Assembly (NCBI GenBank): GCA_000002435.2
Contig: CM018793.1
Source: Giardia intestinalis
Taxonomy: Eukaryota
Strand: one strand, 5' to 3'
Length of the DNA stretch: 64,000 bases
In this document: positions 1-57,017 of the stretch, piece after piece
Layout of the letters: each line of letters opens with the position of its first letter
Position numbering within the stretch: position 1 is the stretch's first letter
Program-made: the position numbers and the translations under genes
Notes under the pieces: model-generated
The model's input: the letters and a program-made list of their open reading frames with translations, nothing else
Databases searched by the model: none
Told to the model about the DNA's origin: nothing

Positions 1-1298
1 CCACCGGGACGTGCAGAAGGTCCAGGTGCGTCTGGGTGGACCCGTACGACCACGCGGAGAAGACGTGCTACGGCATGGGCTGGTGCAGCTACAGCGGGGC
101 CACCGAGCAGTGCAGCTGCAACCCCAACACGGTCCCCGTCGGAGCGAGCGTATGTGTCTACGCGGCGTGCATGCCGAGTGGTAGCACCGATGACCCCAGT
201 ATGATATGCAGGGGGCGCGGGACATGCGTAGAGGGCCCTGTCGCCGGCACGGGACTGTGCAGGTGCGACAGCAGCAGATACCGCACAGACAAGAAGACCG
301 GCCAGTGCTTTGTCAAAGAATGCTTCGGGGCGCACGAGAGCATCCTGGCCGAGGTCTGCGATGGCGGTGGAACATGCAGTGAAGACACTAAAAAGTGCAA
401 CTGCAACTCCTCCGGCTTCCAGAGCCTCGACGGCCAGAACGGCTGCGTGCACAGCAGCTGCGTCTCGTCGGACAACAAGCTCTGCAGCGGCTTCGGCGCC
501 TGCGAGAAGACCGGCGACACCTACGGCTGCCTGTGTGCAAGTTACTATACTCTGGTCGACAAAGACTGCATCCCCACAAGGTGTCTCAAGGACGGGAAGG
601 TCTGCAACGGCGGTGGCACATGCTCCGGCGAGGGATCCTCTGCTACCTGCAGCTGCAGCCAGGGCTGGACCCCCCACGGGACCCTCTGCTACCCATCGGC
701 CTGCGTCTCCGGTGGGGCGCTCTGCGGGGGGAATGGCGACTGCCAGCTCTCCGACGGAGGCTCGTGCAGCTGCAGAAGCGGCTACGAGACCGTCTCCGGG
801 GGGCTCTGCGTCAGCAGCCAGTGCGTCCAGCGCGGCACCGACGGCACCGTGACGATCTGCGGGGGCAACGGCAGGTGCGTGTCTGAGAACGGCGTGACTC
901 CCAGCTGCGTGTGCAACGAGGGCTTCTCTCTCACAAGCGACTTCGTCTGCGGAGTCCCTGCTCCATCTAAAAAATCGTCTGCCGGCACGACGGCTGCGAT
1001 CGTGGTCGTCGTCCTCCTCGTCCTCGTTGCGGTGGCCGGCTTCCTTGTCTGGTGGTTCGTGATACGGCCCAGGAGAGGCGGCCCACTGAGGGAGCGCGTC
1101 CCGCAGAAAGGCTCCAAGTCTTCCAGCTCTTCTAGGTCCAAGCTCAGGCGGCAGGCGGACTCCAGCGTCTCGCTCCACGCCGACGTGCCCCTGCTGAGCC
1201 AGGCGTCCAACGTCAACTCCAGCATCCAGCTCTAGCCCGCTGCCCGCAAGGTGTCGGTATTGGTAAGTCGACGGCGCGGATCTGCATACGAATGTAAA
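1..1298. repeat. Segmental duplication, copy A, nucleotide-identical to 55606..56903
   Basis: A direct read of both intervals shows identical sequence and identical six-frame ORFs. Identity ends within TGTAAAC/TGTAAAT about 60 nt after the stop codon. Confidence 0.9.
3..1235 (+). CDS. High-cysteine membrane protein (HCMP), 3' part only (5' end truncated by window start): EGF-like Cys repeats, C-terminal TM helix and Ser-rich cytoplasmic tail
   Basis: The frame is open from the window edge to TAG at 1233-1235. The translation is identical to the C-terminal 411 aa of CDS 51766..56841. It carries repeated CxxC/GxC motifs and a TM helix (AAIVVVVLLVLVAVAGFLVWWFVI). Confidence 0.85.
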   Translation, partial: TGTCRRSRCVWVDPYDHAEKTCYGMGWCSYSGATEQCSCNPNTVPVGASVCVYAACMPSGSTDDPSMICRGRGTCVEGPVAGTGLCRCDSSRYRTDKKTGQCFVKECFGAHESILAEVCDGGGTCSEDTKKCNCNSSGFQSLDGQNGCVHSSCVSSDNKLCSGFGACEKTGDTYGCLCASYYTLVDKDCIPTRCLKDGKVCNGGGTCSGEGSSATCSCSQGWTPHGTLCYPSACVSGGALCGGNGDCQLSDGGSCSCRSGYETVSGGLCVSSQCVQRGTDGTVTICGGNGRCVSENGVTPSCVCNEGFSLTSDFVCGVPAPSKKSSAGTTAAIVVVVLLVLVAVAGFLVWWFVIRPRRGGPLRERVPQKGSKSSSSSRSKLRRQADSSVSLHADVPLLSQASNVNSSIQL

Positions 1299-1479
1299 CA
1301 TGATTTACTTCGAGGTTAGTTTGTCAACTGCTGTCCGAACAGGTTTTCCATGTGAGCCATCGCTCTGGGCAGACCTCCCGCTCACCTTCCGAGACCCGAG
1401 AGCCGGATGTCCTAGATCCCCGTGGGAGAAGAAGAAGGTTTGCCTATCCTCTTGGAAGCTGCTGTGCTTCTCGCAGCGC

Positions 1480-1700
1480 CTTCTAGGACCTCCCCTTCCT
1501 CTGGCTGGTTGTGGGCAGCCAGGACTCGTTCGCTTCTGTCAGCCAGACACCCCAAGGATCCCATCTCTTGTCGAGGGATTCACATAGGTCACATGGTGAG
1601 TCCATCCCGATGAGCGTGGCAAGTGATCGGCGCCATTGCCAGCTGCAGGCTTTCAGTCGCCTTCTCTATCGCCTTGGAGGAGGAAGCATGAGGTTCTTCT
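1480..1700 (+). repeat. Interspersed repeat, copy 1 (approximately 80% identity to 18860..19110)
   Basis: The string tctgtcagcc...cccatctcttgYcgagggattcacataggtcac...agtgatcggcgc...ttgccttggag occurs in both places in the same orientation. The short ORFs there share peptide tails (CRGIHIGH, SLVEGFT/SLAEGFT). Confidence 0.6.
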
Positions 1701-4700
1701 TTTGTCATCAGAATGGTATGACGTCCGAACCTCGATTCCCTGACTTCAGATGATGAACAAGCAGGGAAGTTCTTTGCATGGCACTTGCATGAGGGATTTG
1801 CTCAGACAGCAGCTACGGCGTCTGGCTACATGTTTCTCTTACGAGCCTGGTAATTGACCAGAGTTGCTTTACAGTCGCGGAGACACTGCTGCGTCTCTCT
1901 GAGTCTTTTAGAGAGACGATCCAGTTTAGTGTAGAAGAGTGAGGGCGATCCAGCCCCGTGCCTACGTGCTGCTCTGCAGTCTGCTGCTCCTGCTTTCTGT
2001 CTTCGTTTCCCTGAAAGCAGTCACGATGGCTCTCTGGAGCAATCGCTTGCATCCATCCGCAACCCTAGGCGTTACGGCTTGGAAGTCCATGTCACCGCAT
2101 AAGCTCTATGGAAGGCATTTACTAGCCATGGCAGATGGAGGTCGCCGCTTCTGGAGGCCCTGGTGCATGCCAGGCCTAGAAGACGCTGACTCCACTGGCT
2201 GCAGGAGCCCCCACCTACATGTGACAGCTTGAAGTAGCACCACTTCGAGGACAGAGGATATCCACAGCTCGAGAGGACGCGGCGGCAGAGAACAGACTCA
2301 GGCATAGCCACAAACAGACCCATCGATCCGGATGGATGAGGGCGGACACCTAATTGGCAAGCCGTTGGCTAGTCTATGTAGAATCGCACCCTCCAACGCA
2401 GGCTCTGACACACAAAGTTTAATGCAGACTATATGTACACAGCAGACGGGCAGAAGCCTGCTTCGTAGTGTGTGGAGGCTTTGATGAGGCAATCGCGGGC
2501 TTAATGAAGGCCGGGACCGGTAGCTCTAACAGAGGGCTTCCCAGCTTTGGAATACTTGCGATCACCATAGAGTCAATACAGTGAGTTATCTGCAGTAACA
2601 AACTTGTGGAGATAAGGGCAGAGTCCTATCAAACTAACTAGATACTAATGGATCCTAGCGTGAACTCGCAGTATAAGAACTTGCAGAAGGCACCGCATTC
2701 TACTCATCTGAGTAAGACGGCCAACTAAGTGGACCCATAGTGCAAAGACCACGAGGCCAAGGGCTCCTCCATAGCTTCAGAAGCCAACATCACAAGAGTC
2801 ACACTGGCTGCGGAGTGCTTTCTGATCCACTGAGGCTTAGCGGCATGGCTTCGTTTCCTAGTACGGCCAGACAGGCTTGAGACACGAGATACTCTGTCTG
2901 CTACAAAGCACACCTTCTGGCAGCGACTCTTGTCTATCGGGTAACTCTCGCATAGAGGAGGCAGATGGCTCTGAAGCGTCACTGCTCGCCTGATAGCTCT
3001 GGATCATAGCAGAGGAAGTTGTTTATGAGAATGCACCCCTAGTGTGTAGATCCACATTTTCGTGCGACGTGAGAAGACGTTTCTGGGTTGATCTGTCATG
3101 CCTCCATCTGCTCTAGCAAAATGTAACGCAACGCATGCACTATTGATCTATGTCGCCATGGCAGCCATAGTTAACTAGCCAACGAGACAATCGCTAGAGG
3201 AACCCTCGCACACTTATGAGCAGAGGCGCAGCCTGAGAGCAGTCCTCTGGCCGCTAAGTGATGGAGGAGCAGACATAGCGCTGCTCCGTGCAATCACACT
3301 CTCTTACCTTAGTAGCTATATGGGCAGCCCCGGTCTTGTGAGGTCTGTGGATAAGCTGCTTCACCCCATAAAACACTCAGAATTACTACAGGTGACACCT
3401 GCAAAATCTTACTGTTGGAGGCCATGCTCCACTAGAGACATGGCTCTGGAAACACATTGACTGATGGGAGCTCCCCTCTAGCGTTCTTAGGGGCGATGTC
3501 TGTCCACAATAGCTCTACACCCACTGCCTGTCTATGACCCAACTGTATCTTATTAGACCCCTATCTCCACTGAGTGGCTGATTCGAGGGTGATTGCCGTT
3601 ACCAGAATGATATCTTATATTGACTGCTAAGAGCTGTCTTTGCATATATTACGCTGCTTAGTACTGCACTCAAACGAAGTTTGCCATCGTTTCGCAGCTA
3701 TTGTGGATTGGAAGAACAGTTAGCACTCTCAGTAGTTCATGTGGTAATCGGAAGTCAGGGAAGTCTAAGTTGAGTGGGAAAGCTTGAAGAGGAAGTAGCA
3801 GCTCTTGTACTCCTCTGCTGGGTGATGCAGAGAACTGGCTCGTTTCTTAGCGTCGATAAGTTCTTCAGAATGCACGTTTCTTTGTATAAGGCCTGCATGC
3901 TTCGGATTGCCCTCTGTTGCCAGCAGAGCAGCCACCGCCCTGTGTGTCTCCTTCAGGCATATACCCATCTACGACGACGCCTCATGTATCCTCTCTGGAG
4001 AGGTATAACCGTCCCAATCCAGACACCTTGCTCTCAGCGCACACCTCGTATCTATCAAAGGCCAGGTGTTCGTCAACCATATCCCGTGAGCATCAGCGCT
4101 GTGCCACTATGTTACTTCCTGTCCTTCTTGAGGGGCGTGCTCTGACCATCTCAGTGTCTCTATGATAGGAGAGCTGTGGATCCGGAGGCTGCTGTGGCTT
4201 TCTGGCCCTCTCTGCTGTCCAGTAGACTGCAAGAGCGCCCTTCGGGAGTCGGTCCCCCAACCCTCTGTTCTCTCGGGGAAGTGGTCCTTGGATAGTGCTA
4301 CTTGGATGGTTCCCGAAGCCTCACTGCACGGGTGCTGCTTCTAAGAACTCCTGGAGCCTCCCTACAGAGTCGCCCAATGGCGCAAGTCTTACCCATTGTC
4401 AGCGGGGGTCTTGGCTCTCAAGGACATCTCAGGGACAGTACGTTTGACCCACGCCAGTGCCACTTCCTGGCAGAGGCATGCGGAAGATCTACTCCCTCTT
4501 GTGGATCCATCATTGGTATCGAAAGCACTGCGTCTGTTACCTTCGTTGGAGGTGTCGACAGATGGTACCCCGTATCTGCCCCATTGAAGAGTTGGAGGTC
4601 TGCTAAGGACAGCGAAGAGGATCCCATCAGGGCTGTGATCATATACCCGTCATTATGGCAACCATAGTGTAGATAAGACAACTGTCTGAGTCCTGTGACT

Positions 4701-7700
4701 CCCGGGGTGAGACGCCAGGGGCGTAGCTAATTCAAGCTGATGAAGGCTACCCTTGTCATAGCAGGCTTAGAAAATAGGGAGCGAGTGACGTACCTGGTGT
4801 CCATCAACGCACACATGCAGCCTGGAAGCCGTGTTCAAAGCACCAAGGCCTGCAGGGGAATGGCATCCGAACAGGCCCAACAGTTATGACTGTTTCTGAG
4901 GACAAGTCAGCGTGACTAAACGAGAACATGAGAACTCACAGAGACCCTCACAGTTTTGATGTCTGGGAGAACGTGGGGGCTGACCACTCCAAGGTTGTCC
5001 ATCTCATGAGCTGGCTTTCGATAGCAAACATAACAAGGAAGTGACCCCTAATTATACACAATCTCATGCCAGCCCATCGCAGGATAGACCATCATTGCCT
5101 GACCTACCAATCCGTCCATTGCTGTGATAGATGTAACAGTACTTCATCATCGGCCACCTTGCGGCTACACAGTCAGGGTATTATCCGTGACATTGCTTGC
5201 TGATGCTCTGCATAGGGCCCTGTCCTCGTAGAGTGACAGATGAGCCTCTCTGTATATGTGGATCTAATGATATGGCTCCTCTGGGACTTTCCACCTCTGC
5301 TTCTGTCTAGTATCTCACATCAATATGAAGTGGCCAGTGGCTGTTATTGGATCTTGCAGCATAACTATTACACATGTATGTGCCCATCAAGACTACCATA
5401 TAGGGTCACACAAGCCGGGAGCTCTGTCAGGCAATTATCGGACTCGATATCAAGATGGCACGGGGACAACACTCCCAGTGGTCGCTGAAGCATGAAGCAT
5501 TATATAGATCGTATAGCATACCAGCGGCAGCACAACGGCAGAGGACATACTTAGATGTAGATAGCGCCTACAGCAAGCGGCATGCTGTCGTTGTCGGTAC
5601 AACGGGCATAGTGGCTACTGGATCCACGCTTTGGTAGCCTCGATTGGAGCAATTGCACAGCGAAGGAGCAGAGCGAGGGGGCATGGAAACCAACCGGTCG
5701 AGCAACGTGTACATGTACGAGCACAGTTATAAGTCTCGCCCACACTAGTGGGTGGTGCTCTGCCTCAATGTGGACTCAGCGGGTTAGCTCTTATATCTAT
5801 GGTAGGGAGCAGAACACCACGCTGGTCATGTGATGAGAGGTCTTCATGCGGTCTTCCAACTAGCCTAGGCAGCACTTGGAAGCGACCAACCCTCTCGTAC
5901 CACGTCTCCTCTCCAAATAGGACTGAAGGCGCCCAGGGCGCTCTTCTAGGGCCTTAGTATCATGGAGCCCGTGCCAGGCAGGAAGGTTCTATATTACATA
6001 GCATGAGAGCCTCTATGACGTGTAAATACTTGCGTGGTTGTAGTGACGCGTCCTCATCAGCAAGTGTCAGGGCACATCAGTGGACAACTGTATAATAAGT
6101 CAGGCACTCTGTGTGCGATCATGCATCACAGCTCTCGTAACGGGCTACGGGCGACCTGAGGACTAGTACTCTATGGCAGCGCAATGTGAGGCGGTGAGCC
6201 TAAGGCAATCGCCGGATCGATGGCTTCAACGCGGCATCCAACAAGGTGCAGCAGGGCATCGAGCCAGCTGAGCATTGAACCAGGCCCTGGATAGGAGCTA
6301 AGAGCTCCTGTGCATGGCTGGGCTGCTCTCTAGATGGGAAAGGATGCACGTCGAGCTGGTCAGGTGCGATGCTGTAAGGTATCCACAGCTGTATCGATGC
6401 ATCTGGTAAGTCCACACTGGACTCCGGGAAGCACGCTGCCGGACAAGCCGAGGAGGCTCGAGGGATGATGGCGCCGTCTTGTTATCGCTATGCAGTGCTC
6501 CGTGGACATGTATACAAACCAGCATCTCCTGGTAGCCGAGGAGGGGGCAGAGCTAGGAGACGGCGAGTGTCCCATTATGAACGACTCCAGGCGCTACCCG
6601 ATCACTCCTTGGAAGGGCATATGCCTCGGCTAGGTTGCATCACATCCAGAGTAGAAGAGGAAGCTGTACTGTCCTATTTGTTTCTCAGGACAATGTGCGA
6701 ATAGAAAGCGGCCCAGCGACTGACACTCTGCACCGTCCTCCTCATCCGCGGCCTGAGCAGCCAGATGCCAGGCTCGATATGTAGGACGGAAGCTGCGAAG
6801 AATAAACTCACCACGGGGCCGATTGTCTGACACCAAAAAATCCAAAGGGACGATAGCGCCCACTGCCTCTTAGGAGAGCGCATCATGCACGATACCAGCC
6901 GTGCCAGCCTTGGCTTCTTAGGGGAGTAACCTGGGGACGTCCTGTACTAGCTTCGGCTTGTGAGGCGTTAAGACCTGTGAATAGCACAAAAGGAGGCAAC
7001 TGGGTGTACAGGCAGTGCATTGTGTTCGTGGAAGTGTACCGCAACTTCTAGGTGTATACAGCGGCACTAAGCCGGGCATCTCAACTGGCCTGCATTGGCG
7101 ACCCGCTTGCCACCGTGTTTGCTGTGATGAGAGGCTGTGTCTGTCCAACAGATTGAACAGGTATTGCACTTGCTTCTCTGGTGATGCATGCATGGTCATA
7201 TGTAGCTCTGGTAGGTAGCGTGGATACTATGATAGCTAAGCTGTCTGCCATCAGTAGAGAGTAGCAGTTAATCGCGCCAGAGACTCTTCCAGGTAAGCCT
7301 TCGGTCTTCGTGCCTGCTTCTCCACCAACTATAGTAATAACTGTATATCCAGAACAATGCCATGAAACGCTCCACTGCCTTTCAGAGTGAGACATGGACC
7401 TGCGTATAGGGCTAGAAATAGAACCCTGTACATCAACTGTTGTGCGCCTGGCGTGATGTCAGGTCTAGACCGCGGCACGATCTCTGCGTGCTTATGTGCT
7501 TGCGTGCATGCTCACTGCTATGTTGGAAATTGCAGCAAGGAGGTTGGCCTCTGAGTGCACCCACTCTACAGTGACTAGTCCTTAGCTGCACGTCTCAACG
7601 GAGGAGGGTGCTACTTGGGTGTGCAAAAGACTATCTGTGCACGGCGGCTCCTGGAGAGATGGTTCGCACAGAAAAGGTAGAGGCGACCAACAGACCAGGG

Positions 7701-10623
7701 AGGTAAGATCATCGCTAGAGAGTCTAGTTATAGATCTGGATTGCAACGAGGACACTTGTAATGCCTTTCTGGCCTCCGAACATAGAAAGATTGCAAGGCC
7801 TATAAATAGATCGGAGGCTACTTTTTGATTTTGTGCATTTGTAGCGGCGTAATATTTATTGGGAGCCAGTCTCGTCTGAAGCTGGGGAAATTCACTTTCT
7901 CTCCATATACAGGCGAAGATCTATTGTAGAGGCATACTGTACAGGCCGGTACCAGTCGGCGTGGTTGCTGTCCACAAATGTCTCACTTGCGTCCTCCCAC
8001 AACAGATGAATCGCCAAAGTGTCTCTTGGATTGCGTGATGTCCTACAGTGCATCTCTGTTTCGGCCAAAGATTGGCGCACGCGTTGTGTAGTTTAGATTG
8101 CTCATCCCCATGAGGATGTAATCCGCTCTCATCCTCTGCTTGTCTATCTCGTACGACCACTGCTGATGACCTTTCCAGATCAGTGGGTGCCTTCATCGGT
8201 CCTGCAAAGGCACGCATCATGTAGGTGACTACTGCAGACCAGAGTTCTGTCTACCAAGGAAAAGGGTCAATCTGTTTACCGCGTAGGCATTCATTGTGTG
8301 CCCTATATAGTCCAGCAGGTCTTGTGCTCTTTAACATTTTCTCAGAGCCCTGTCTGGAGCCTGCATGCATATCGTTACTGACGAGCACTTTAGATTCACC
8401 TAGTCACCTAGGACGTCAAATCCCTTACGCTGCATAATGGGTATGCTCAGTGTGAGAGATACGTAGTCAGCATCAGCCTTCTCGGCTCATTGTCTGGGCA
8501 ATACTACTGCTGTTTCTCATCCAATCCGCTGGCGCGAGGACCCAGCTCATGGCTAGCAAACCGAGAAAGGCCATTCCGGGAGGTCTTCAAGCGCGCTAGT
8601 ACCTCGTTAGCGGGTAGCTAACAGTGACCGTGGCGCGTACTTCCACCAAGCCATGGCCTCCTTGAGCGGGGGTGTGAAATGGGGCCCTGTTATCCTGCGG
8701 CCCTGCTGATTCCCCGGACAGCAGGGATCGGAGCAGCCCAGCTAGCGCCTCTGGGTCTCCTTCTGTCCTCGTTGTCTGAGATGCGCTTGACTCTATAAAC
8801 TTGAAAAGGTACTGTACTGTGCTTGGGTCTGCGAGGCTCAACTAGGCAGGGCTACCCTCTTGGAGACTACGCTGAGGTACCACACATCCCGAGGAACCTG
8901 TATGGAGTACCACAGCCCAAGGGCACCTTTGTCTGTCGAATGCAAGTTGTAGTTATGGCTTCATAAGTGCAGCCTTTCTTAAAATAACTGATCAACTACA
9001 GAATTCGCCTACTCACCCAGAGCCACCTGATGGAGGATGATATCAGTCTCGTCAGTCGTCTACAACGTACACCAGTCGAGTCTTACAGATGAACAAGGGC
9101 TACCCAGTCCGCAGCACTAGACATTAGCAGATATCCTTCACGACAAGGGGGATAAGCGACTGGTAGACCAAAATAGTCGTCTGCCCATTGAAGATCTTCC
9201 AGTCACTGACCTAGGCCAGCTTCCTACAAGATTCTTGGCGAGTTGTATCAGAGACGCATGCTTATGGAACTCCCAACTCAAGGTGTATGCTGCTGGATCC
9301 CACCTTTCATACCAGTCTATGTATAGCGGTGCTCCGGCCTTTAGTGAAACTACCCTGGAGACCACATAAAATATAATGCCCCAGTCGGGTATTATCAGAC
9401 TCCTACAGCTATGCAATGAGGTCTGCTTTTCGCATTACGCATCAGAGAAGTATGTTGGGCTGTAGTGGTGCAATTCCTCGTATGGTATGGTTCGTGAGTC
9501 CAGAGATAAGATGCTTGTATCAATCGATCTGTTTACCTAGGGCCAACCATAAGTTGGACTAACGGTGACAATCAGACGCTGCTCGACTTCCTGACAGCAG
9601 ATAGAGATCCGACTACCCTAGTACCTTACCTGAGACCACAGGGACGCTGATTACGGGTCTGATTAATAGCTGGCGGAGCGACACGACAGGCCTAAGTTTT
9701 TTCTGCCGAAGTAGCCCACCACAAGAAACTCTTTGTCGTTCATACCAACAGATTCAGGCACTGCAAGCAATCGTGGTTCTACTACCGCTACAATGGACAG
9801 CACCAGGATGATCCAAAAGGGGTAATGGGAGTCCTGGTTTCTTAGCTTAGGAGACAACGCGGTTTGGGCAGTGCTTCCTCCTTGTCCAAATGTAGAAGTG
9901 TTGGCCTGCGTTTCCTGAGCTCCAATTGAGTCTTTGTCGTGCGGTGAGGTATCTTAAAATATCCATTACAAAAAGCGAAGAATAGCGCCGTCCACGCTCA
10001 ACAAACCAAAGCGTCTCACGGGCTAATCTACACCGATTCACATCTTCCATGGACCTTAGCGACCACCGTAACCTTCTGCTAGAATCTCACGGGAGCTCGT
10101 CTTTGAGTCCAGCTCTCCTACAACAGTCAGAAGCCGCAAACATAATCTGATGAAGGAGAATGCTGCAAGGACTGAGAAGAGAGTGCCGGTGAATGGGGGT
10201 TCGCAGGGACCCGATCCGCGCAGGGAAGGCGCAGGGGCCAACACCTCGGGGACACAAGGGCGTTAGGAGAGGAGCCAGCAGCAAATCTGTGGCACAGCGG
10301 GGACACTCAGGGCGTCCTTTCATTGTCTGAAGGGCAGGGGAGAAGCAGGTGTGTGAGGCGGTCCAGCAGATTATTTTTGAGTTTCTGCCTCCCTGCGTGC
10401 TGCACGAGGATGAATTTCCTTGGAGGCCGCTTGCCCAGGCCCAAAGGGTCCCTAGGGATGGCTTATACAATAGACACATTTACTACCCACTAATTTGCAT
10501 CTCTCAAACAAAGGTATCATAGGAGATGGACTCTTGAGATTATCTGATATAGTATGATCAGGTAGAGTGCTTTAGCTTTGGATATCTTATTCTTGTCCAT
10601 ATAATAAGCTAAGAAGGGCTTCA

Positions 10624-12534
10624 ATGTTATTGGTAGCTTTCTACTTCGTGCTGAGCGCTCTTACGGCAGCTTGTCAATCGGATGCCCAAATTGCTAAATG
10701 TACGCAGTGTGTAAAAATAAGTACAAGTGATACTGAGATCTGTACAGAATGCAAAGCTGAAGGAGACGTTCCTATCAACGGAGTATGCACACCAAAGGGG
10801 GATGCTACTGTCACAACTGCTGGATGTAAGACTGATGCTGGAGCTGAAATAACAACAGAAAAGACATGTGGGCAATGCGACGGGGCTTACTTCCTCCATA
10901 AGAACGGATGCTATGCAATTGGCGGGGACGTTGGACGCCTTATTTGCGCCGATGCCGCAGCTGCTGGTCGTGTGTCATCAAAAACTCCTGGCGTTTGTGA
11001 GGGTTGCGTAGTTGGCTATTTTAAAAACCCAAGTGCAGCTAACAATAAGGACTCTTGTATTGCATGCAATGATGCAACTGGAGTTGTGGATGGTGGAAAT
11101 ACGTATAAAGGAATTCTGAACTGTGCTACGTGTCAGCCGCCAGCCAGTGCTGGTGCTGCTCGCCAAGACAAGGTTGCCGTATGTGAGTCATGTCTTGAGG
11201 GGTTCTTTGTTGACAGCAATGGGGCAGCATGCACAGCATGCCAGGACAATAACTGTGCTAAATGCGATGCAGGAGCAGGAAAATGCACGAAGTGCAAGGC
11301 AACCGCTAACAAGCCATATCTAAAAAAGGGCGAAACCGAGGACTCTAATACATGTGTTGATAAAAGTGGATGTAATGATAACTCCCACTTCACTGATGAT
11401 GCTGACGATCCTACTAATGGAAAAATGTGTAAGAAATGCTCAGAAGGGATAGCAGACTGCAAAACGTGTGCTTTGAAGGATAATCCTGAAGGTACAATTC
11501 TCATCACGTGCTCTGCTTGTATAGCAGGTACTAATCAACCCAACGCCGACGGAACGAAGTGTGTACTATGTGATATACAGGATTGTATAAAGTGTAATGA
11601 AGAGAATATGTGTGAAGAGTGTACTGGAGGTAAAAGCCTAAGCCCCTTAAAGAACATGTGTATGGAGGGCTGTCCTGCAGGAACTCGTGATGTCAGCGGG
11701 ATATGTACTAATTGCCATAATTCTTGTGCAGAATGTGATGGTGATAGTGAAGCCTCCTGTACAGCTTGTTATCCTGGGCTTGTATTGAGCAAAAGCAATA
11801 CTGGAGCCACCGGCACATGCATCCCAGAGTGCACGGGAAGGTACGCAGAGAACTGCGAGGCTGGCCAGTGCACGGCCGTCGTTGGGGGCTCGAAGTACTG
11901 CAGCAGGTGCAAGGCAGGGTTCGCCCCGGTGGACGGCGTCTGTGTGTCGACAACGACAAGGGCAGTAACTGGATGCATGCCAAATGATAACAATGATGGA
12001 ACATGCAAAGCGTGTACAACCACATACTTCTTGCAATCTGGCGGATGCTATCAGTCGGCTGCATACCCAGGCAGCAACCTATGTAGCAATGCTCAGAATG
12101 GAAAATGTACGAATTGTGCTAATGGACAACAACCAGAAGCTAGCACTGGATCTTGTCCAGCATGTGCATCTGGTTGTAAAACATGTGAGGTAGCAAACAA
12201 GGAGGCATGCAAAACGTGCCTTCCGGGATACTATCTTGCCGGAGCAAAATGTGTGAAGTGCGACACCAATGATCCCAATGATGGTAGCCATATTGTTGGT
12301 GTCCCAAATTGCGTAAGCTGTGCCCCTCCAACTGGTGGCAATGGCGGTCCTGTCACCTGCTACGTCAAGACAGATGTCACTAACGATGGTGGTAACGATA
12401 ACAACGGCGGGAACACGAACAAGAGCGGCCTTAGCACAGGCGCCATAGCGGGGATCTCCGTCGCTGTCATCGTTGTTGTCGGCGGCCTCGTCGGCTTCCT
12501 CTGCTGGTGGTTCATCTGCAGGGGCAAGGCGTAG
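10624..12534 (+). CDS. Variant-specific surface protein (VSP)
   Basis: ATG with AT-rich upstream (tataataagctaagaa). Signal peptide MLLVAFYFVLSALTAAC, about 12% Cys in CxxC spacing, a GGCY motif (SGGCYQS), a C-terminal TM helix and the invariant CRGKA* terminus. Confidence 0.92.
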   Translation: MLLVAFYFVLSALTAACQSDAQIAKCTQCVKISTSDTEICTECKAEGDVPINGVCTPKGDATVTTAGCKTDAGAEITTEKTCGQCDGAYFLHKNGCYAIGGDVGRLICADAAAAGRVSSKTPGVCEGCVVGYFKNPSAANNKDSCIACNDATGVVDGGNTYKGILNCATCQPPASAGAARQDKVAVCESCLEGFFVDSNGAACTACQDNNCAKCDAGAGKCTKCKATANKPYLKKGETEDSNTCVDKSGCNDNSHFTDDADDPTNGKMCKKCSEGIADCKTCALKDNPEGTILITCSACIAGTNQPNADGTKCVLCDIQDCIKCNEENMCEECTGGKSLSPLKNMCMEGCPAGTRDVSGICTNCHNSCAECDGDSEASCTACYPGLVLSKSNTGATGTCIPECTGRYAENCEAGQCTAVVGGSKYCSRCKAGFAPVDGVCVSTTTRAVTGCMPNDNNDGTCKACTTTYFLQSGGCYQSAAYPGSNLCSNAQNGKCTNCANGQQPEASTGSCPACASGCKTCEVANKEACKTCLPGYYLAGAKCVKCDTNDPNDGSHIVGVPNCVSCAPPTGGNGGPVTCYVKTDVTNDGGNDNNGGNTNKSGLSTGAIAGISVAVIVVVGGLVGFLCWWFICRGKA

Positions 12535-12547
12535 ATGTACTTAGGTA

Positions 12548-12554
12548 GTAAACG
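12548..12554 (+). terminator. Putative Giardia polyadenylation signal AGTAAAC (AGTRAAY), 14 nt after the VSP stop
   Basis: Exact motif match read at 12548-12554. Confidence 0.6.
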
Positions 12555-12844
12555 CGTTGCTGTATATGGATTATGTAGATTATGCTACTAGGCCCCGGCT
12601 GCTGGTGCGTCCAGACGTCCCACGGGTAAGCCTCACCCATGTCCTGGCCGTCTGGAGACGAGGGCTGGTTGTGGATAACATGCTAGGGATTCCTCTCTAT
12701 TAGCGCATCCAGAGCTTGGTGCGCCCCTCTGCCACTTCGCGGGCATGTACTCGATTTGAGTGTGCGCGTCCAGGGCCCTGGCCTTTTCGCAGACTCTCTG
12801 CTCTACCCGTGGCGCCTCTCCTTGGTCTGCCGTCCTGGTGGGTG

Positions 12845-13075
12845 AAGCTCGGGTCGCTGTCTTTTTTAGATGCCCCGTCTGTCGGGGGCTGCCACCAGGC
12901 TCTCTCACTGGCTGGGCCCCTCGGTGTCCGTCCGGCTGTGTCCCGGGCAACGCTCCCACAGTCCAGTCACCTAGGTCTCACAGTGGGCCGGCTGGTGGGT
13001 GAGGCGGGGTTGGTGGGGCGGTGAGGCCGGAGGGGACCGGGGGCGGTGTCTCTATGTGCCCCTGGGTCCGGTGGA
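12845..13075. repeat. Inverted-repeat arm A (imperfect, about 80-90% identity to the reverse complement of 14630..14905)
   Basis: The core ggccggctggtgggtgaggcggggttggtggggcggtgaggccggagggg is matched on the opposite strand at about 14700-14760. Flanking similarity extends about 100 bp on each side. Short ORFs on opposite strands share peptides (GWAPRCPSGC, GRLVGEAGLVGR). Confidence 0.7.
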
Positions 13076-14629
13076 CCATTGAGGTGGTGGGTGATCCCCA
13101 CTCTGTTTGCCAAGGTGGTTGTGTCTGATCTCCAGCCTTCGTTGCACTCCCGAGACAGAGGCACCGACGATCGTGTCGTGTCCCTTGACTGAGTGCCTCC
13201 CTTGGCCCCTGCATGTCTCAAGTAGTACTGCTGCTCTGTCTGGCTGGTGCGTGAGGGGTGAGGCAGACCATCGCAGCCCATCTTGATGCTCTGTGCGGGT
13301 CTGCTGAGCCTCCTGGCATGCCCTGTCCAGTGCCTCGACGGTAGTTCACCTCGGGCCAGCAGGGGTATGGACAACCCTGTGGATGGGATGGGGTTCTGTC
13401 ATGCCTCTAGTGTGATGGCCCAGAAGACTGGCACGGTGGGGCACTGGTGGCTGCACTGTCCCCGTGGCCAGCTGTGCTGCTCCTGGTAGATCCTTGTTGT
13501 GGAGCGCTGTGTGTTGTTCATAGGCAGGGGTGAGTCCTCCTTGGTCTCAGGATGCTCTACCATCAGAGAGGAGTACGCTGAGGGTCACCCAACATCACCT
13601 GCTGTGCCCTCGGGAGCTCCCGATGTGATCTATCAGGACCTTGACACCTCCTCGTGGCTCTGATGACCCCTCGGGGAGAGCCGGGGCACCCTATACTGAG
13701 GGGTGTGCACCCTCCTGCACGAGCCGGGTCACCCACTGCACTGCCCCCAAGGAGGTCTGCTATGAGAGGCAGTGGGATGATTGACAGCCCCTCAGAGTGC
13801 AGTGGAGGGTGCTCGTGGTCGTCTCTGTGACCGGGCATCACTCTGATGGTCGGCTCTGTGCCTTTGTGGTGCTCAGAGGTCACCTGTCCTCCATAGCCTG
13901 CCGGACAGCCGGGCCTCTTGTGGCATCCAAAGGCCTCCTCGCTCCTCTGGCTGCTGCCCCCTCGGGTCATCGGTGGAAGTAGTCGAGGCCAGCGGAGTCT
14001 TCGGTGGGTCGTGCCTGCCTGGGTGTCATGGGGGGCTGGCAGCTGTCAGGGCTCTGCCACTGCTCGCCTGCCTGGAGTGTGCCTCCCTTGGGCCTGCTGT
14101 GCTGTAGTGTTTGAGTCCTCTGGCTTCCTATCAGGCCCTTGGTTGTGAGGGTGACTTCACCTGGCCCTCTGATGCCCCTGTGGATGAGCACAGTAATGTG
14201 TCTGGCCGGGGATCTCTGGTGCCCGTGTCTGTCACTGCCTCTCGGGTGCTCGGGTGGTTGCCTGGGGCTCTCGTACGGGGCACAGTCAGCGTGTCCCGAG
14301 CAGACTCCAGTCCTCTCTGGGTCATGCACAGTCTGTCCGTGTGTGGATGGTCCTCCTGCACTCAGGTCCATCTGTGTGCACTGTCACTCAGTCTCGAGAG
14401 CAGACCAGTGCAGTCACCAGGGCTGCTGTCAGAGGGAGTCGTCTGCCACTACATCGCTCGAGCAGACCCTACAGCTCAGGCTGGCTGCTGTGCACCCTCA
14501 TGGTAGGGCTGCCTGACTCCCTTGGTCATCCTCTCTGTCCCGGTGTGCACGGCTCCTGAGGCGTTGTCTGGGTGGAGGCACTCACAGACCACGAGCCCAC
14601 AGAGGGGTGAGTCACAGATGGATAGCCCC

Positions 14630-14905
14630 CAGTCACCACAGCTATGATCACCCCAGTCCACCGGATCCAGGGCACATACGAACACCGCCCCACCCGGTCC
14701 CCACCAGGAGCCCCTCCGGCCTCACCGCCCCACCAACCCTGCCTCACCCACCAGCCGGCCCGCCATGAGATCCAGGTGACCGCGACTGTAGAGCGCTGAC
14801 CCAGAACCACAGCCAGACGGACATCGAGGGGCCCAGCCAGTGGAGCTGGAGAGGTGGCGAGAGAAGATCTGCTTACTCACAGGGGAAGCAGCGACCGAGA
14901 ACAAA
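14630..14905. repeat. Inverted-repeat arm B
   Basis: See arm A. The arms enclose about 1.55 kb of GC-rich, GT-skewed sequence with no ORF. Confidence 0.7.
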
Positions 14906-15571
14906 TAACGATGCCCCTTATAGCGAGCCAGAGACCTAATAGCTGCTGTCGTCGAGACAAGTGAAAGCATTGTTAAAAAGATAGTAGCAACCCATATCTA
15001 TCATCCACCATGAAGAAAGACCATGAAGCGAGGCACTACTCATAGACTACATGTGCTGGTGAGTAAGCTGAATCCAAGGCTGAGCGACGCCCACACATAG
15101 TCTGAGCACACACCCACAGAGCGACCGGGGAAGGTGCCAGGTTTTAGATACACTAATAGAGGGGACCCTCTAGTATGTTGTCTACAACCAGCCCTCGTCT
15201 CCGGATTGGCCAGGAATTGAGCGAGAATTTACTCGTGAGACTTCTGGACCGCGTGAGGCGAGGCTCCAGCAGCACAGTACCTATTTTGCTGCACAGGAGC
15301 TCACACTGGCACAAGATGGCTCCGTGCACTCAGATTGATGGACAGAAGGGGTCAATTCGTAAGATCTGTCTCACTAAGGGCGCTTTGGTTGCAATCCCAC
15401 GACTTCAGAGGCTTCTGTGCTGATTGGGATTGGGTAATGATGCGCGAGGAAAAGCGTTCGACCAGGAGGTAGCAAGGCTGAGGCTCACCGAATCCATGAT
15501 TGTTATCTACCCACAGATTCTGCGAAAATTGGACCCAGTACAGTAATTGTTAGTTTGGCGTAATAGAAAGC

Positions 15572-18187
15572 GTGAATCTAATTGCGCATGACATGGTCAG
15601 TGAAAGTCCCACTCGTGCTGCAGAGAGCGCTGGCAGTGGCCTCGATAGCATCCCCATGTTCAGTCCCGAAGGGCTGTATCAGCGCGAAGGCGAGCTGCTA
15701 GGTAAAGGGGGCTTCGGTGCCGTTCGCGCCATCGATGGGTGTCCAGGCCTTTCTGTGAAGGAGAGGATGATCAAGCGTAGTGAGAAGAAGCTCACAGAGT
15801 GCGAACTGAAAACTGTTACGAGACTCTCCCAGCCTGGCGTCATCAAGTATCACCAGGTGATCAGGAGCAACGACCCATCTTTGTCATCATGGACCGCCAC
15901 CACGGGGATCTCCAGAAATTTATCACTGCCTACAGGGCAGCTCGTAAACCCAGTCCCAAGGGGCTGATGTTCCCTCTCCTAGAGCAGATGGCTGACGCCC
16001 TCGCCTACCTCCACAACCCTCGCAAGGTGGCCGAAGACGGGAGCTTATCTTACAGCCTCGTCTACGGGGACCTCGGGCCCGCCAACTCTGATGAATAGGG
16101 ACGGCTAGCGCATCGTGCTCGCAGACTTTGGGCTCTGCAAGGACTCTCTGCATAGTGGAGGCACCTTTGCAGGAACGTCGGCATACATAGCCCCCGAGAC
16201 CTTCATACGAGACGAGCACCGCTTCGGATATCTGAGCCTCCGGAGTCGTCATGTATGAGCTTGCCGAGCTTCTCACACTTTGGGAGCCAGAGGATGCGAA
16301 AGCAGTCTTTGACAATGAGTGGAGGCCTGATTTGGGCGCCATCACAGATGAATTTGTAAGAACTGTCATCGAGAAGATATTATCCTGGACCCGGCAGAGC
16401 AGCTCACGACCAGAAAGATCATTGGCTTTTTCCAAACACTCAATAGCCCTGCAATTAAAGCGGAGGATCAACATAAGGAATCCGAACATCTTGCAGAACG
16501 CTCCACTCCGACAAATGTTACGGTTTCTTTAACTTCTTCTACGTCCATGAACATGTCTAAGCCCCCGCTTGTATATCCTTTCAGTGGTACAAGTGTTGAA
16601 GCTGCTGAAGAACACCTTACTGAGGAAGACAGTGGTATCGACCCTATTCATTGAAGAATAGAGGCTCCTTTTGTTACAGACGGGGGCGCATACAGCAAGA
16701 AGTATATGGCTCTTGCGCGGAGCATCCCAGCTCTGACTCCCTTCATTATGCGCGTGTCGTTATTCTTGACCAGTCATATAGCAGGTCAACCCTCTTCAAC
16801 GACCTCTTTGGAACATGCCTCAAGGCGTTGGACGAAGATGACGACTGACAAAAGACGACCAAGGGGCTTACAGCGGGATTCATCCCAGGTGCAGGATCCT
16901 ATCCGACCATACTACTACTCTATTGTAAGGGGTCCGAGAGCAAAGAGCGTGCCACAGAAAATGATCAGAATATTGAACGCTGTATAGGCGCTTTCGCATC
17001 TGCCATTGCCGACATTCTTATTGTTCATATTTTGCAGACAGATGTTAGTCGTGTAGAAGGATTCTGCGCCAATCTCCTCAAATCGATCTTCTCAGTCTAC
17101 TTCCAGCCCCGCAACGACGTCAAAATATATATCACAAACTTAGGCTGTTCATCGATATCCATCGGTGTAATGGAAAGGGAGAAGATCACATGAAGGAAGC
17201 ACTTAACAATGATATCAAAGGAATATATGAGAACTCAGTCCCTTCCAAATTGCGTAATAGCTTCCGTCGTTACATCGACTTCAGCTTCTGGTTCATTCGG
17301 GACACGTCCTGTGAGGACAAGAATGGTAACCAGGATGAATCGGACCTTTACAAACAACAAATAGAAGGTATCCGCAGAGACATACAGACACTTGTTGCCG
17401 AAGTCATCAATCAACTTGCTTCGAGTGAACGCTTGTTCCTCACCCTTGCTGATTCTGCTGAATTCTATAGGAAAATTTGGGACACAGTTTGCAACAATGA
17501 GAATTTTGATGCTCCTTTCATACAGATGGTCTTTCTAACAAAAATGCTAGATGACAATGGTGTTACTTCACTTATGAAAGTGGCTATGAAAGGTGACATA
17601 AACTCTGTGAGACTGCTGATACCAAGCCAGAAGGAACTGAAGGATAGGAAAAATCACAATGCTCTGTACTATTCTCTTAAAAATGGACATCTAGAAGTTG
17701 CTGAGATGCTTATATCTTATGAGGACCCAACAGATGATGATGGTATGACAGCACTTATGCGGGCTGTTATTAGGGGGGCGCAAAGCTAGTAGAGCTGCTT
17801 ATACCAGCTCATAATGGAATGAAGGACAAGGCTGGAAACACGGTGTTCATGCATGATCTTAAGAACAAGCACACAAGCATAGCTCTGCTTCTCCACAAAC
17901 ACGGGGCCTCATCCTAGACCCCAGTCATGTGCGCTTCCTTCGCCGGCGATACTGAAAGAGTTAAGAAGAACCTTTCTGATAAAGACAAGAAGAATGATGA
18001 TGGTGAGACTGCTCTCATGTTGGCAGCAGAAAATAACAGAAGACATACTCTTTTTTACCAAAGTCAACTTGCTAGTTGTTGTCTGAGTAAATATCCCTGC
18101 AAACCACCATTGCTCTGGGCAGATGGGCTTCTCACTTACTCTTGGGCAAAGTCCAAAATCCGAAATTCGGATGCCATCCAATCCTAA
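15572..18187 (+). pseudogene. NEK-type protein kinase with coiled-coil/ankyrin tail, inactivated by multiple frameshifts and stops
   Basis: Kinase subdomains appear in order but in different frames. These are GKGGFGAV (about 15700), IFVIMDRHHGDLQKF...LAYLH, a mutated catalytic loop VYGDLGPANSDE (about 16060), GTFAGTSAYIAPE (about 16150) and MYELAELLT (16251). They are followed by ankyrin-like repeats split across frames (GVTSLMKVAMKGD, DGMTALMRAV, DGETALMLAAENN) at 17190..18060. Confidence 0.55.
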
Positions 18188-18859: not shown

Positions 18860-19110
18860 AGCAGACCCCAGGCAGGTGGCCCAGACCACCACTCTTCGGT
18901 ACGGTCAGGATCAATCCGCCTCTGTCAGCCAAGCACTCCAGGGCTCCCATCTCTTGCCGAGGGATTCACATAGGTCACGTGTGGGTCCATCTCGACTAGC
19001 GGGCGATGATCCTGGCCAGCGTTGGCCTAGTGCGGCGAGTGATCGGCGCATCCATCACCAGTTTCAGGCCCTCTATTGCCTTGGAGAAAGCACAAGGCTC
19101 TTCTACCAGG
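18860..19110 (+). repeat. Interspersed repeat, copy 2
   Basis: See copy 1. It lies immediately 3' of HCMP 19279..21150 (minus strand). Confidence 0.6.
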
Positions 19111-51765: not shown

Positions 51766-54700
51766 ATGCTGATTCTCCTGTGTGCCGCTGCATGTCTCGC
51801 CGAGGCGTGCGGGACAGGACCTGCATGTGTTAACGGAGACTGCGCCTACGGGGACGGAGCACACTTCTGCCAGTGCAGGCGGGGCTGGGTGGGGGCTGCG
51901 TGTGACGCCCCCCGCGCGGGGTTCCGCAAGATAACTACCAGTGGGCAGACACCCGCGGACAGGGCCGTCAACTACGCCTGCCTCGTGAACGGGACGGAGT
52001 GCACAGGGTCGAGCAAGTGCACCTACTACGCAGGGGCGTACTCGTGCGACCCCTGTCCTGCTGGCTTCGTGTCCTACGAGGGCGAGTGCCTGCCGAGGGG
52101 CTGCTTCAACACCGGCGATTACTCAGACCAGGAGGCAACGAAGGCCCCTTGCAACGGCCGCGGCCGCTGCCTCCTGAAGGACCCCGGGCTAGCAGGGATG
52201 GATGCTGACGACTACGCGTGCGACTGCTACCCGATCTACCGCGGGGGCCTCTGCCAGTCGTGCGACGACGCCAACGCGATCGCTGCGGGAAGCTCTTCGT
52301 CTGATGCCCTCCCTACGTGCAATGCGCGGGCCTGCCAGGACTCGGATGGCGTCGTGTGCTCAGGCCAGGGAACGTGCACCCTCGACGTGGGCCTCGATCG
52401 CGAATCATATCACTATCGCTGCAAGTGCAATGATGGCTACACACGCGTTGGGCACAAGTGCGTCAGGACGGAGTGCGTGGCCACGATCGACGGGTCCCCG
52501 GTCGTCTGCGGGGGCTTTGGAGAGTGCACGGATAAAGATAGCCCCGGTACCTTCAAGTGCGTTTGCGATTCTAATGCAGTCCCGGTCGGTCAGTTTTGCA
52601 CATATCCCGCGTGCACAGACAGCGCTGCTACTGAGATCTGTGGCGGAGTGGGCGCCTGTGTGCGCAACGGCGCTGGCTATAGGTGCGATTGCCGAGGGCT
52701 TGCCACGGGCGACCTCTGTGATACTTGCACTCCTGGGAAATCCGCTCAGGTAGGCGACAAGTGCGTTCCAGTGGGGTGCCTCACCTCAAACAACCAGGAA
52801 TCATGCAAGAACGGAGGAACATGCGTCAAGTCCGATGGCGAGTACCACTGCCGCTGCCCGGACATGCTCATTGCCGTCAGCGGAGAGTGCACGTCCCCCG
52901 CATGCATGGACGAGGAGCTGGGGAAAGTCTGCTCGGGACACGGCACGTGCAAAACGGACGACCCACAAGACATAAAGTGCACCTGTAGTTCTGAATACAC
53001 GTACGTCGCCCCGGGGCGCTGCATCCTAACAGCCTTGATGGACGGCGACCGAATCTGCAGCGGCCACGGCCACGTTAGCATCGACACCTCGGATCCTCCC
53101 ACGATGACCTGCAGGTGCTCGTCGATCTACGAGGGGTCCAAGTGCGAGACCTGCAAGGCCTCTGTCGCCCAGGAGATCGAGGGCGAGTGCGTCCCAACCA
53201 AGTGCATTGTGGCACCCCAGCCCGGATCGCGAGCCACCACTCCCAGGGTCTGCGACGACCACGGCCAATACACGAAGTTCGGCGACCCGAGCGACCCGTT
53301 TGCCACGTGCACCCCCAAGGACCCCGACTCCGGGACCGTCTCCGCCTACAATGGCACCTTCCTTGCGAGGCCCGGGTGCGTGCATGTCAGCAAGGTAGAC
53401 AGGACCAGGAGGTTTTACTGCGGATTCCTGCAGGGACTGACAGACAACTTGCAGGAAGGCGTGGTAACGTGCAATACACAGAACGAGGGATCTGTGTCTG
53501 TTGAGACGTGCAATGGTTGCCCAGAGGGCTTTAAGCTTGTCCACTTCGGGGCAGAAGAGGGCTATAGAAAGACATGTATGCACGACAACTGCTACCACGG
53601 AACTGGCGCCAGCAGGATGTGGTACGACTACTGCGGCGGGACCGGCGACTGCATCAAAGAGGGTGACACGTACAGGTGCGACTGCGGCCCCAGTGCCACT
53701 TGGAACGAGGGCCTGAAGGCGTGCGTCACCGAGGCGTGCAAGCTCAACAAAACGCTGGCCGGCCCAGAGGCGCCCGAGTACTGCGCAGCGCCATCTAGCC
53801 TTGCGCTCCACTGCACCGTCGGCCGGGACGCGGCCTGGCAGTGCGATTGCCCCCAGGGCGACTACCTCACGTACAACAGGACGTGCATCCTGAGGAGCAA
53901 GAGCGCCAGCCCCACGACCCACCGAGCAAGGGGGCTTTGCGGCGGCCCCGGGGCGGGCTTCCTGAGCGGCAGCGGGTCCTGCGTCTGCAACCCGGGCTTC
54001 CTCAAGATCGACGACATGTGCTACAGCTATGACTGCCTGCCCGTGGGTGTGACGGCCGACACAAAGAGGTTGGACCTCAGCCCCCACGTCTGCTCCGGGA
54101 AGGGGGTCTGCGCGTACAACCAGCTGACCGGCCGATATGGCTGCGAGTGCGAAGCTGGTCTGGAGGCCTTCGGGGGCTACTGCACTCATCCCGGGTGCGC
54201 CGGGAAGGTGATCCACAACGGAGAGCTTAAATACGTTGAGTGCAAGGTCTACGACGGGTCCGTGGGCAGCTGCGTTCAGAGCGCAGACGGGGCCGCGTAC
54301 TTCTGCGCCTGCAGCTTCCCGTACACATCTGTCGGCGGGCTCTGCGTCCATCAGCGCTGCGTGGTGAATGGCGAGTACTGCGGCGGCGACGCCCTGGCCT
54401 CGTGCGTGAGGGGCAGCGATAGCCTGTACGGCTGCGTCTGCTCCGAGGGCTACGAGCTGAGCGAGGAGCGGAGCGAGCACGGGAACAAGGCCAAGTGCGT
54501 CCCGAGCAGGTGCATGTACAGGCCGTCGGCAGGCGACCCCGCCATCGAGTGCAACGGGCTGGGCACGTGCGGCAATGGTGGCGGTGGGTCTCTGCTGAAG
54601 GACAAGAGGTGCGAGTGCAGCGGTGGAGCTCAGCTGCACACTCTTAGAGACGCAAGCGGGGAGCTGAGGGAGACGTGCATTCTGGACGCGTGCATCTCTA

Positions 54701-56841: not shown

Positions 56842-56903
56842 CCCGCTGCCCGCAAGGTGTCGGTATTGGTAAGTCGACGGCGCGGATCTGCATACGAATG
56901 TAA
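55606..56903. repeat. Segmental duplication, copy B (3' end of the full HCMP gene)
   Basis: Identical to 1..1298. It diverges after gaatgtaaa. Confidence 0.9.
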
Positions 56904-57017
56904 ATTGAAACGTAAGAGACGGGCCGGTATGACAAGCTCAGGCTTCCTTACAACTCCTGCATATGCTACGGATATGCTACCGTCTCTAATCGAGACCCTT
57001 CCTATATCGAAGGCGCA

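Follow-up and report, generated by a model that had tools for sequence, protein, structure and literature searches.

The window analysed here is a 64-kb stretch of chromosome 5 of Giardia intestinalis WB. It carries a plus-strand VSP gene (GL50803_00113304, or GL50803_113304; 10624-12534) that encodes 636 amino acids, ends in the C-terminus ...FICRGKA and is a 100% match to a WB VSP. The stop codon lies at 12534 and is followed on the same strand by AGTAAAC (12547-12553), a motif read from the sequence that we take, from established Giardia knowledge, to be the polyadenylation signal of the gene. Next comes an inverted repeat. Its left arm (12583-13106, plus strand) is the 3' flank of the VSP gene, its right arm (14614-15274, minus strand) is an inverted VSP 3' flank with no attached VSP, and the two enclose a unique GC-rich spacer (13107-14613, assigned to neither strand). 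The right-hand neighbour is a frameshifted NEK-kinase pseudogene with an ankyrin ORF (15572-17789, plus strand), recognised from translations and Pfam Ank matches. Its kinase fragments lie at 15572-16098, and the ankyrin ORF (17190-17789) is the old WB gene model GL50803_10587 by exact-sequence match. The pseudogene marks the end of the cassette and is syntenic with a NEK gene in the GS locus L013. An ORF-poor region lies 5' of the VSP gene (7110-10402, plus strand); the 9.4 kb at 1236-10623 is without any ORF of at least 180 amino acids, in a genome that is otherwise compact.

Direct repeats also occur in the window. Positions 1-1298 and 55607-56904 are 100% identical and 55.6 kb apart. The second copy is the 3' end of a gene for a GC-rich EGF-like cysteine-rich membrane protein (ORF 51766-56841), and the first runs off the start of the window (ORF 36-1235). 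This repeat is probably the GL50803_15250/d15250 pair of the S4 table of a published preprint, which draws that pair as '<- ->', unlike the direct repeat here (bioRxiv 10.1101/2022.03.07.483299). A short dispersed direct repeat (1531-1628 and 18917-19011) is 84% identical over 98 bp, and its copy at 18917-19011 is also kept in A2-like contigs.

A repeat search picked out several colinear inverted pairs, and a BLASTN comparison of positions 12400-15400 with the 64-kb window gave two colinear inverted matches, far beyond chance: 12906-13076 with 14842-14656 (80% identity, E 4e-41) and 12609-12709 with 15249-15147 (79%, E 1e-16). The same search found no further copy of 12400-15400 elsewhere in the window. 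Gapped local alignment unites the two matches into arms that span approximately 12583-13106 and 15274-14614, contain indels and agree in 404 of 517 aligned columns (78%). The inverted repeat proposed from a first reading of the sequence therefore exists, and its arms are co-linear rather than a scatter of low-complexity matches. The intervals proposed for the arms, 12845-13075 and 14630-14905, capture real inverted sequence but only its best-preserved inner block, and the full arms are larger. The identity of about 80-90% proposed for them likewise holds for parts of the arms: it is 78% across whole arms and 80% in the inner block (12906-13076 in the left arm, 14656-14842 in the right), reaches 91-94% in sub-blocks and falls to 67% in the outer part (12583-12770 in the left arm, approximately 15031-15274 in the right). 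The left arm begins approximately 50 nt past the VSP stop codon and ends 542-572 nt past it. Its start is approximately 30 nt beyond AGTAAAC, and not the 300 bp beyond the polyadenylation signal given previously.

The right arm is longer than the left because it holds approximately 85-100 bp of extra, AT-richer sequence within 14843-15030, and for the same reason 12845-12905 pairs poorly with 14843-14905. The 14843-15030 segment is AT-richer than all other copies of the arm, and in a comparison with the DH arm by eye many of its differences, uncounted, resemble G-to-A or C-to-T transitions. From 15086 outward the right arm is 97% identical to its DH orthologue. In the left arm, identity to the other copies shifts from 67-75% to 87-92% near 12780-12800. 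The outer end of the right arm has a very stable predicted RNA fold (15135-15334, plus strand; -78.7 kcal/mol, z -4.5, equalled by 0 of 200 shuffles), which is absent from the equivalent regions of the left arm and the paralogous arms, where the consensus reaches only -5 to -9 kcal/mol.

The spacer is 1507 bp long and 61.8% GC, and it belongs to the family of spacers of tail-to-tail VSP pairs discussed below. Its composition had been described well: the interior of the inverted repeat is above 60% GC (61.7%, with 14% A), is rich in G+T on the plus strand (56.2%) and has no ORF longer than 135 amino acids, which is the length of its longest. The abundant short internal direct repeats noted at the same time are weakly present. 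Short words are in excess relative to mononucleotide shuffles (106 repeated 8-mers versus 32 expected, and 17 repeated 10-mers versus 2), but direct pairs are at chance level, and Tandem Repeats Finder gave nothing meaningful and no tandem arrays. A 54-amino-acid ORF within the spacer is the old WB gene model GL50803_112315. The ten longest frames have no Pfam match at E<=1, and no VSP/EGF, transposase or reverse-transcriptase signal, and a 795-amino-acid concatenate of reading frames used as a query found no protein homologue at E<=0.001. Indels among the copies of the spacer are almost all of 1-2 nt, and substitutions are transition-rich (5-7:1) and without codon periodicity, so the sequence evolves as non-coding DNA. 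The spacer is non-coding. A check for GC-biased conversion gave an implied equilibrium GC content of 47-59%, against 62% at present. VSP genes in P15 (assemblage E; L001, 11960-13874) and GS (assemblage B; L012, 11978-14348) are also followed by 1.9-2.4 kb of DNA of 61-76% GC that runs to the contig end. This DNA has no similarity to the WB spacer, and only the VSP is common to these contigs and the window. GC-rich DNA 3' of VSP genes, and breaks of the assemblies within it, seem to be general.

Identical VSP genes arranged tail to tail are known in WB, for example vsp1267 / GL50803_112208 (PMC2996952; PMC7000408), and were called 'interesting, but cryptic' in 2010 (PMC2996952). The 3' flanks of such pairs are near-identical as far as an abrupt point of divergence 318-559 nt beyond the stop codon, and the ORFs are 2393-3222 bp apart (PMC2996952 Table 5). 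Later tables give 12-13 tail-to-tail pairs that are 2526-2813 bp apart (Xu 2020 Table 2, PMC7000408; bioRxiv 10.1101/2022.03.07.483299 S4), and the regions between them are without genes ('None') and 'very similar' among groups of pairs (PMC7000408; bioRxiv 10.1101/2022.03.07.483299 S4). The window has much of this geometry. Its arm likewise runs from the VSP 3' end to approximately 0.5 kb past the stop codon, with an end at 542-572 nt where the published range is 318-559 nt. Its unique, non-coding spacer is of the usual size (1507 bp, where ~1.4-2.2 kb is expected and ~1.5-1.7 kb is shared with the pairs), and if a mirrored partner is assumed the ORFs would be approximately 2.7 kb apart, which fits the published pairs. 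Unlike those pairs, which have two identical convergent VSP genes 2.4-3.2 kb apart, the window has a single adjacent VSP, and its arms are 67-80% identical rather than about 100%. It differs further in that the right arm carries the extra AT-richer sequence, is cut short approximately 45 nt from the expected stop codon and adjoins the NEK pseudogene.

An intact pair was recovered from isolate DH, on contig AHGT01000139 (hereafter L021). This contig has a VSP at 3136-4686 and an inverted repeat (4648-5165 versus 7362-6844) that is 99.8% identical and enters a reverse-complemented VSP at the contig end. Its arms extend 479 nt beyond the stop codon and flank a spacer of 1678 bp, with 2636 bp between the ORFs. 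Positions 4213-6950 of L021 are colinear with 12025-14845 of the window on the same strand, and identity across the spacer, taken in 100-bp bins, is 89-95% throughout. Homology is also present on the other side of the genes, where approximately 3 kb of DNA 5' of the window VSP and of the L021 VSP matches at 67%: blastn against L014, L016 and L021 placed 7110-10402 of the window at 66-67% identity to the VSP-upstream region of the intact DH pair, with matches to L021 149-2971 and L014 6004-9291 (DH locus 2). The duplicated unit is therefore larger than a VSP gene and its arm. Since the arm, the whole spacer and the VSP-upstream DNA are all homologous to L021, the window contains a paralogous copy of a genuine tail-to-tail cassette. 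The interior is accordingly the spacer of this family and not a dead VSP, as it is colinear with the spacer that lies between two intact genes.

Arm sequence also occurs 3' of the stop codons of three other VSPs. Homologous VSP 3' flanks are present in L021, L016 and DH L020, the last next to a VSP fragment, and a further copy lies on WB chromosome 4 (intergenic3255, Table S7; bioRxiv 10.1101/2022.03.07.483299). When the arm copies are aligned (alignment A3), they line up from the stop codon and AGTAAAC outward, and the polyadenylation signal is kept in the other VSP 3' flanks. The link from this locus to the WB tail-to-tail pairs is suggested by one intact DH pair, the published lengths and the statement that pair intergenic regions are 'very similar'. 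Conserved 16-17-mers of the spacer were not found in the accessible portion of the supplementary sequences of bioRxiv 10.1101/2022.03.07.483299. A metagenome scan for VSP loci returned three weak and irrelevant matches, the P15 genome paper makes no mention of inverted or tail-to-tail pairs, and the nanopore structural-variation paper and the Be-2 paper have nothing specific on tail-to-tail pairs.

A different arrangement of the same parts is seen in L016 (4370-6457; also in L017-L019, four ENA assemblies in all), where an arm and then a reverse-complemented portion of the spacer come after the VSP of L021. Next is another arm-like segment, in direct orientation, that is similar to the right arm of WB and shares its AT-rich insert. 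In L016 the spacer portion is only approximately 95% identical to L021, though 4.8 kb on the VSP side is 100% identical. This structure could be a tandem-like [arm + partial spacer] unit, a third locus or an assembly chimera.

On the right side of the window, homology to VSP flanks stops approximately 45 nt short of the expected partner stop codon (alignment A3), and beyond 15285 neither tblastn nor Smith-Waterman comparison against shuffles detected a VSP remnant. L003, the orthologous locus of DH, and the ENA contig L004 have the same junction of the right arm with the NEK pseudogene, which therefore predates the split between WB (A1) and DH (A2). In assemblage B (GS, L013), synteny extends through the 3' half of the VSP and the NEK gene, with a convergent, minus-strand VSP-like gene between them. 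This locus has no recognisable arms or spacer, so it supports an ancestral convergent arrangement only loosely. L013 also contains an inverted repeat of its own (2-360 and 7899-7541, 98.9% identical), which spans the 5' ends of two VSP-like genes and the DNA upstream of them. In DH, a NEK-like gene comes immediately after the VSP of L022, without arm or spacer; L020 and L022 carry near-identical VSPs with a NEK/ankyrin paralogue within approximately 0.6 kb and no arm or spacer on the NEK side. Adjacency of VSP and NEK genes thus recurs at several loci.

The supplementary tables that give the gene ID GL50803_00113304 also list an identical copy, GL50803_00d113304, and the S4 table places the two in an identical '-> <-' pair that is 72,283 nt apart with many genes between (bioRxiv 10.1101/2022.03.07.483299). 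At this distance the copy is outside the window. The arrows of the S4 table are not fully consistent with the preprint's own text (bioRxiv 10.1101/2022.03.07.483299). Because an identical copy is reported 72 kb away, simple loss of the partner gene may be wrong in detail. The cassette may have been split by a rearrangement rather than had its partner deleted, or the VSP block may have been duplicated later onto the locus. The change in identity of the left arm near 12780-12800 would fit the junction of such a later duplication.

At DH locus 1, on a contig (L003) that begins inside the left arm, 335 bp of the two arms align at 98.8% identity. This near-identity is read from a 454-era draft contig, and its four mismatches speak against a collapsed consensus without disproving one. 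Between WB and DH, orthologous arms share 74-88% identity, and the two arms within WB share 67-80%. Arms are closer within than between genomes in DH (98.8% versus 74-88%); in WB they are not, apart from a small number of derived indels that the two arms share within the inner block. Exact matches between the two arms reach at most 29 nt in WB, 317 nt at DH locus 1 and 488 nt at DH locus 2. The spacers of WB, DH locus 1 and DH locus 2 have pairwise identities of 88.3%, 89.0% and 89.8%, and two-against-one site patterns among the three loci are roughly equal, as in a star. The WB spacer is 89-96% identical per 100-bp bin to its orthologue in L003, the right flank is 93-100% identical between the same orthologues, and the VSP-upstream DNA is 67% identical between paralogues.

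The contrast between DH arms at 98.8% and WB arms at 67-80%, together with the equidistance of the spacers, points to gene conversion both from arm to arm and between loci. We infer from these alignments that arm-to-arm conversion probably acts where long perfect homology persists, and that at least one exchange of spacer sequence probably took place between loci. Such an exchange, by ectopic conversion, would explain why orthologous and paralogous spacers are equally diverged. The equidistant spacers could also result from one between-locus transfer around the A1/A2 split, with no ongoing exchange. The WB module appears to be inert now. A recombinogenic palindrome of the kind found at antigen loci had been among the possibilities raised for this locus; the type of module is right, but the WB copy is too decayed to be very recombinogenic now, since its longest exact arm-to-arm match is 29 nt.

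The ampliconic palindromes of primate Y chromosomes are large inverted repeats that are kept uniform by arm-to-arm gene conversion. The VSP module resembles them in having inverted arms around a unique spacer and, in DH, arms with 98.8-99.8% identity, against differences of 12-26% between orthologous arms. It is unlike them in its kilobase scale, against hundreds of kilobases, and in its cargo, which is an antigen gene, and also in that conversion has evidently stopped in the WB copy.

Overall, we consider it likely, with a probability of roughly 0.8, that the inverted repeat with its spacer is the non-coding core of an inverted-pair cassette of tail-to-tail Giardia VSP genes, in which the right arm has no adjoining VSP and the arms have decayed. 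The suggestion of the first-pass annotation that it is the remnant of a tail-to-tail VSP pair was essentially right, as the arms and interior are homologous to the arms and spacer of L021; only its premise that the interior is an eroded VSP fails. A full cassette would run from a VSP through a 3'-flank arm of approximately 0.5 kb and a GC-rich spacer of approximately 1.6 kb to an inverted arm and an inverted VSP. In intact cassettes, gene conversion between the arms would keep both the arms and the VSPs identical, and ectopic conversion would swap spacers between loci. In WB, a deletion would have removed the partner VSP, or a rearrangement would have broken the cassette at the outer boundary of the right arm. 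The identical VSP reported 72 kb away could be that partner or stem from a later duplication of the block. After loss of the adjacent partner, the WB copy, its long perfect homology gone (<=29 nt), would drift as an inert relic.

Selection on the arm-spacer module offers a quite unlikely alternative, in which it would be a functional non-coding element that acts as a hairpin or dsRNA source of small RNAs for VSP silencing, or as a cis-acting site of recombination or replication. The spacer is indeed approximately 89-92% identical between paralogous loci, against 67% for the VSP-upstream DNA, and the perfect arms of intact copies (317-488 nt) would give long dsRNA if transcribed through. However, orthologous spacers have diverged faster than the adjacent NEK pseudogene, at approximately 8% versus approximately 4%, which fits conversion and not constraint. 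A structure scan detected no excess local structure in the arms or spacer (mean z -0.1), no conserved hairpin was found in the arms, and the spacer has no Rfam match, its one sub-threshold hit being a chance match to Tymo_tRNA-like that scored 20 bits where the gathering score is 40.

Slightly less likely again is that the interior is a dead inverted VSP or other pseudogene, eroded beyond recognition. In its favour are the minus-strand VSP-like gene between VSP and NEK gene at the syntenic locus of assemblage B, the A-poor plus strand of the interior, which would suit a coding origin on the minus strand, and the main text of the preprint, which calls pseudogenes frequent between tail-to-tail pairs. 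The S4 table of the same preprint nevertheless gives 'None' as the intervening genes of the tail-to-tail pairs spaced at 2.5-2.8 kb. A tblastn search of 12535-15600 with the WB VSP and three GS VSPs gave matches scattered on both strands with none colinear, the best of them at E 0.002 over 33 residues, and the Pfam search described above gave no VSP/EGF match in the ten longest frames. The same spacer, moreover, separates two intact VSPs in L021. The earlier proposal of a VSP eroded to non-coding sequence is thus not borne out, although the spacer family as a whole may have arisen from coding DNA very long ago.

Least likely of all is a decayed foldback or TIR-type transposable element inserted 3' of the VSP, which the long inverted termini around an ORF-less interior, the existence of more than one genomic copy of arm plus spacer and the transposon relics reported around duplicated VSPs in the preprint might suggest, but which is disfavoured because the termini here are gene flanks within a larger duplicated unit (VSP plus approximately 3 kb upstream): every recovered arm copy continues from a VSP stop codon and polyadenylation signal with none away from a VSP, the L021 inverted repeat extends into VSP coding sequence, the arm also occurs singly after VSPs (L020; chr4 intergenic3255), no transposase or reverse-transcriptase signal was found in the ten longest frames searched with Pfam, and a 234-amino-acid ORF of L016 is interrupted in both WB and DH. 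In alignment A3 the ends of the arms are too poorly defined for target-site duplications to be called.

The inverted repeat of the WB window is a worn, one-sided copy of a known arms-plus-spacer module, and as such a recognisable relic rather than a new kind of element. The three loci form a natural series of decay, from an intact pair with arms at 99.8%, through a one-sided and homogenised DH copy at 98.8%, to the one-sided and decayed WB copy at 67-80%, and they provide evidence that spacers evolve in concert between loci. As a long shot, somewhat less remote than the alternatives above, the arm-spacer module might be a putative cis-acting unit that seeds or maintains VSP palindromes, is mobile by ectopic conversion and is perhaps a source of hairpin RNA for VSP silencing; or the identical VSP 72 kb away might be the original partner, homogenised across a split cassette. 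If the module were such a cis-acting unit, the WB copy would be a natural 'dead' allele. The finding is of modest interest, and it helps to understand how VSP genes are duplicated, kept identical and reshuffled.
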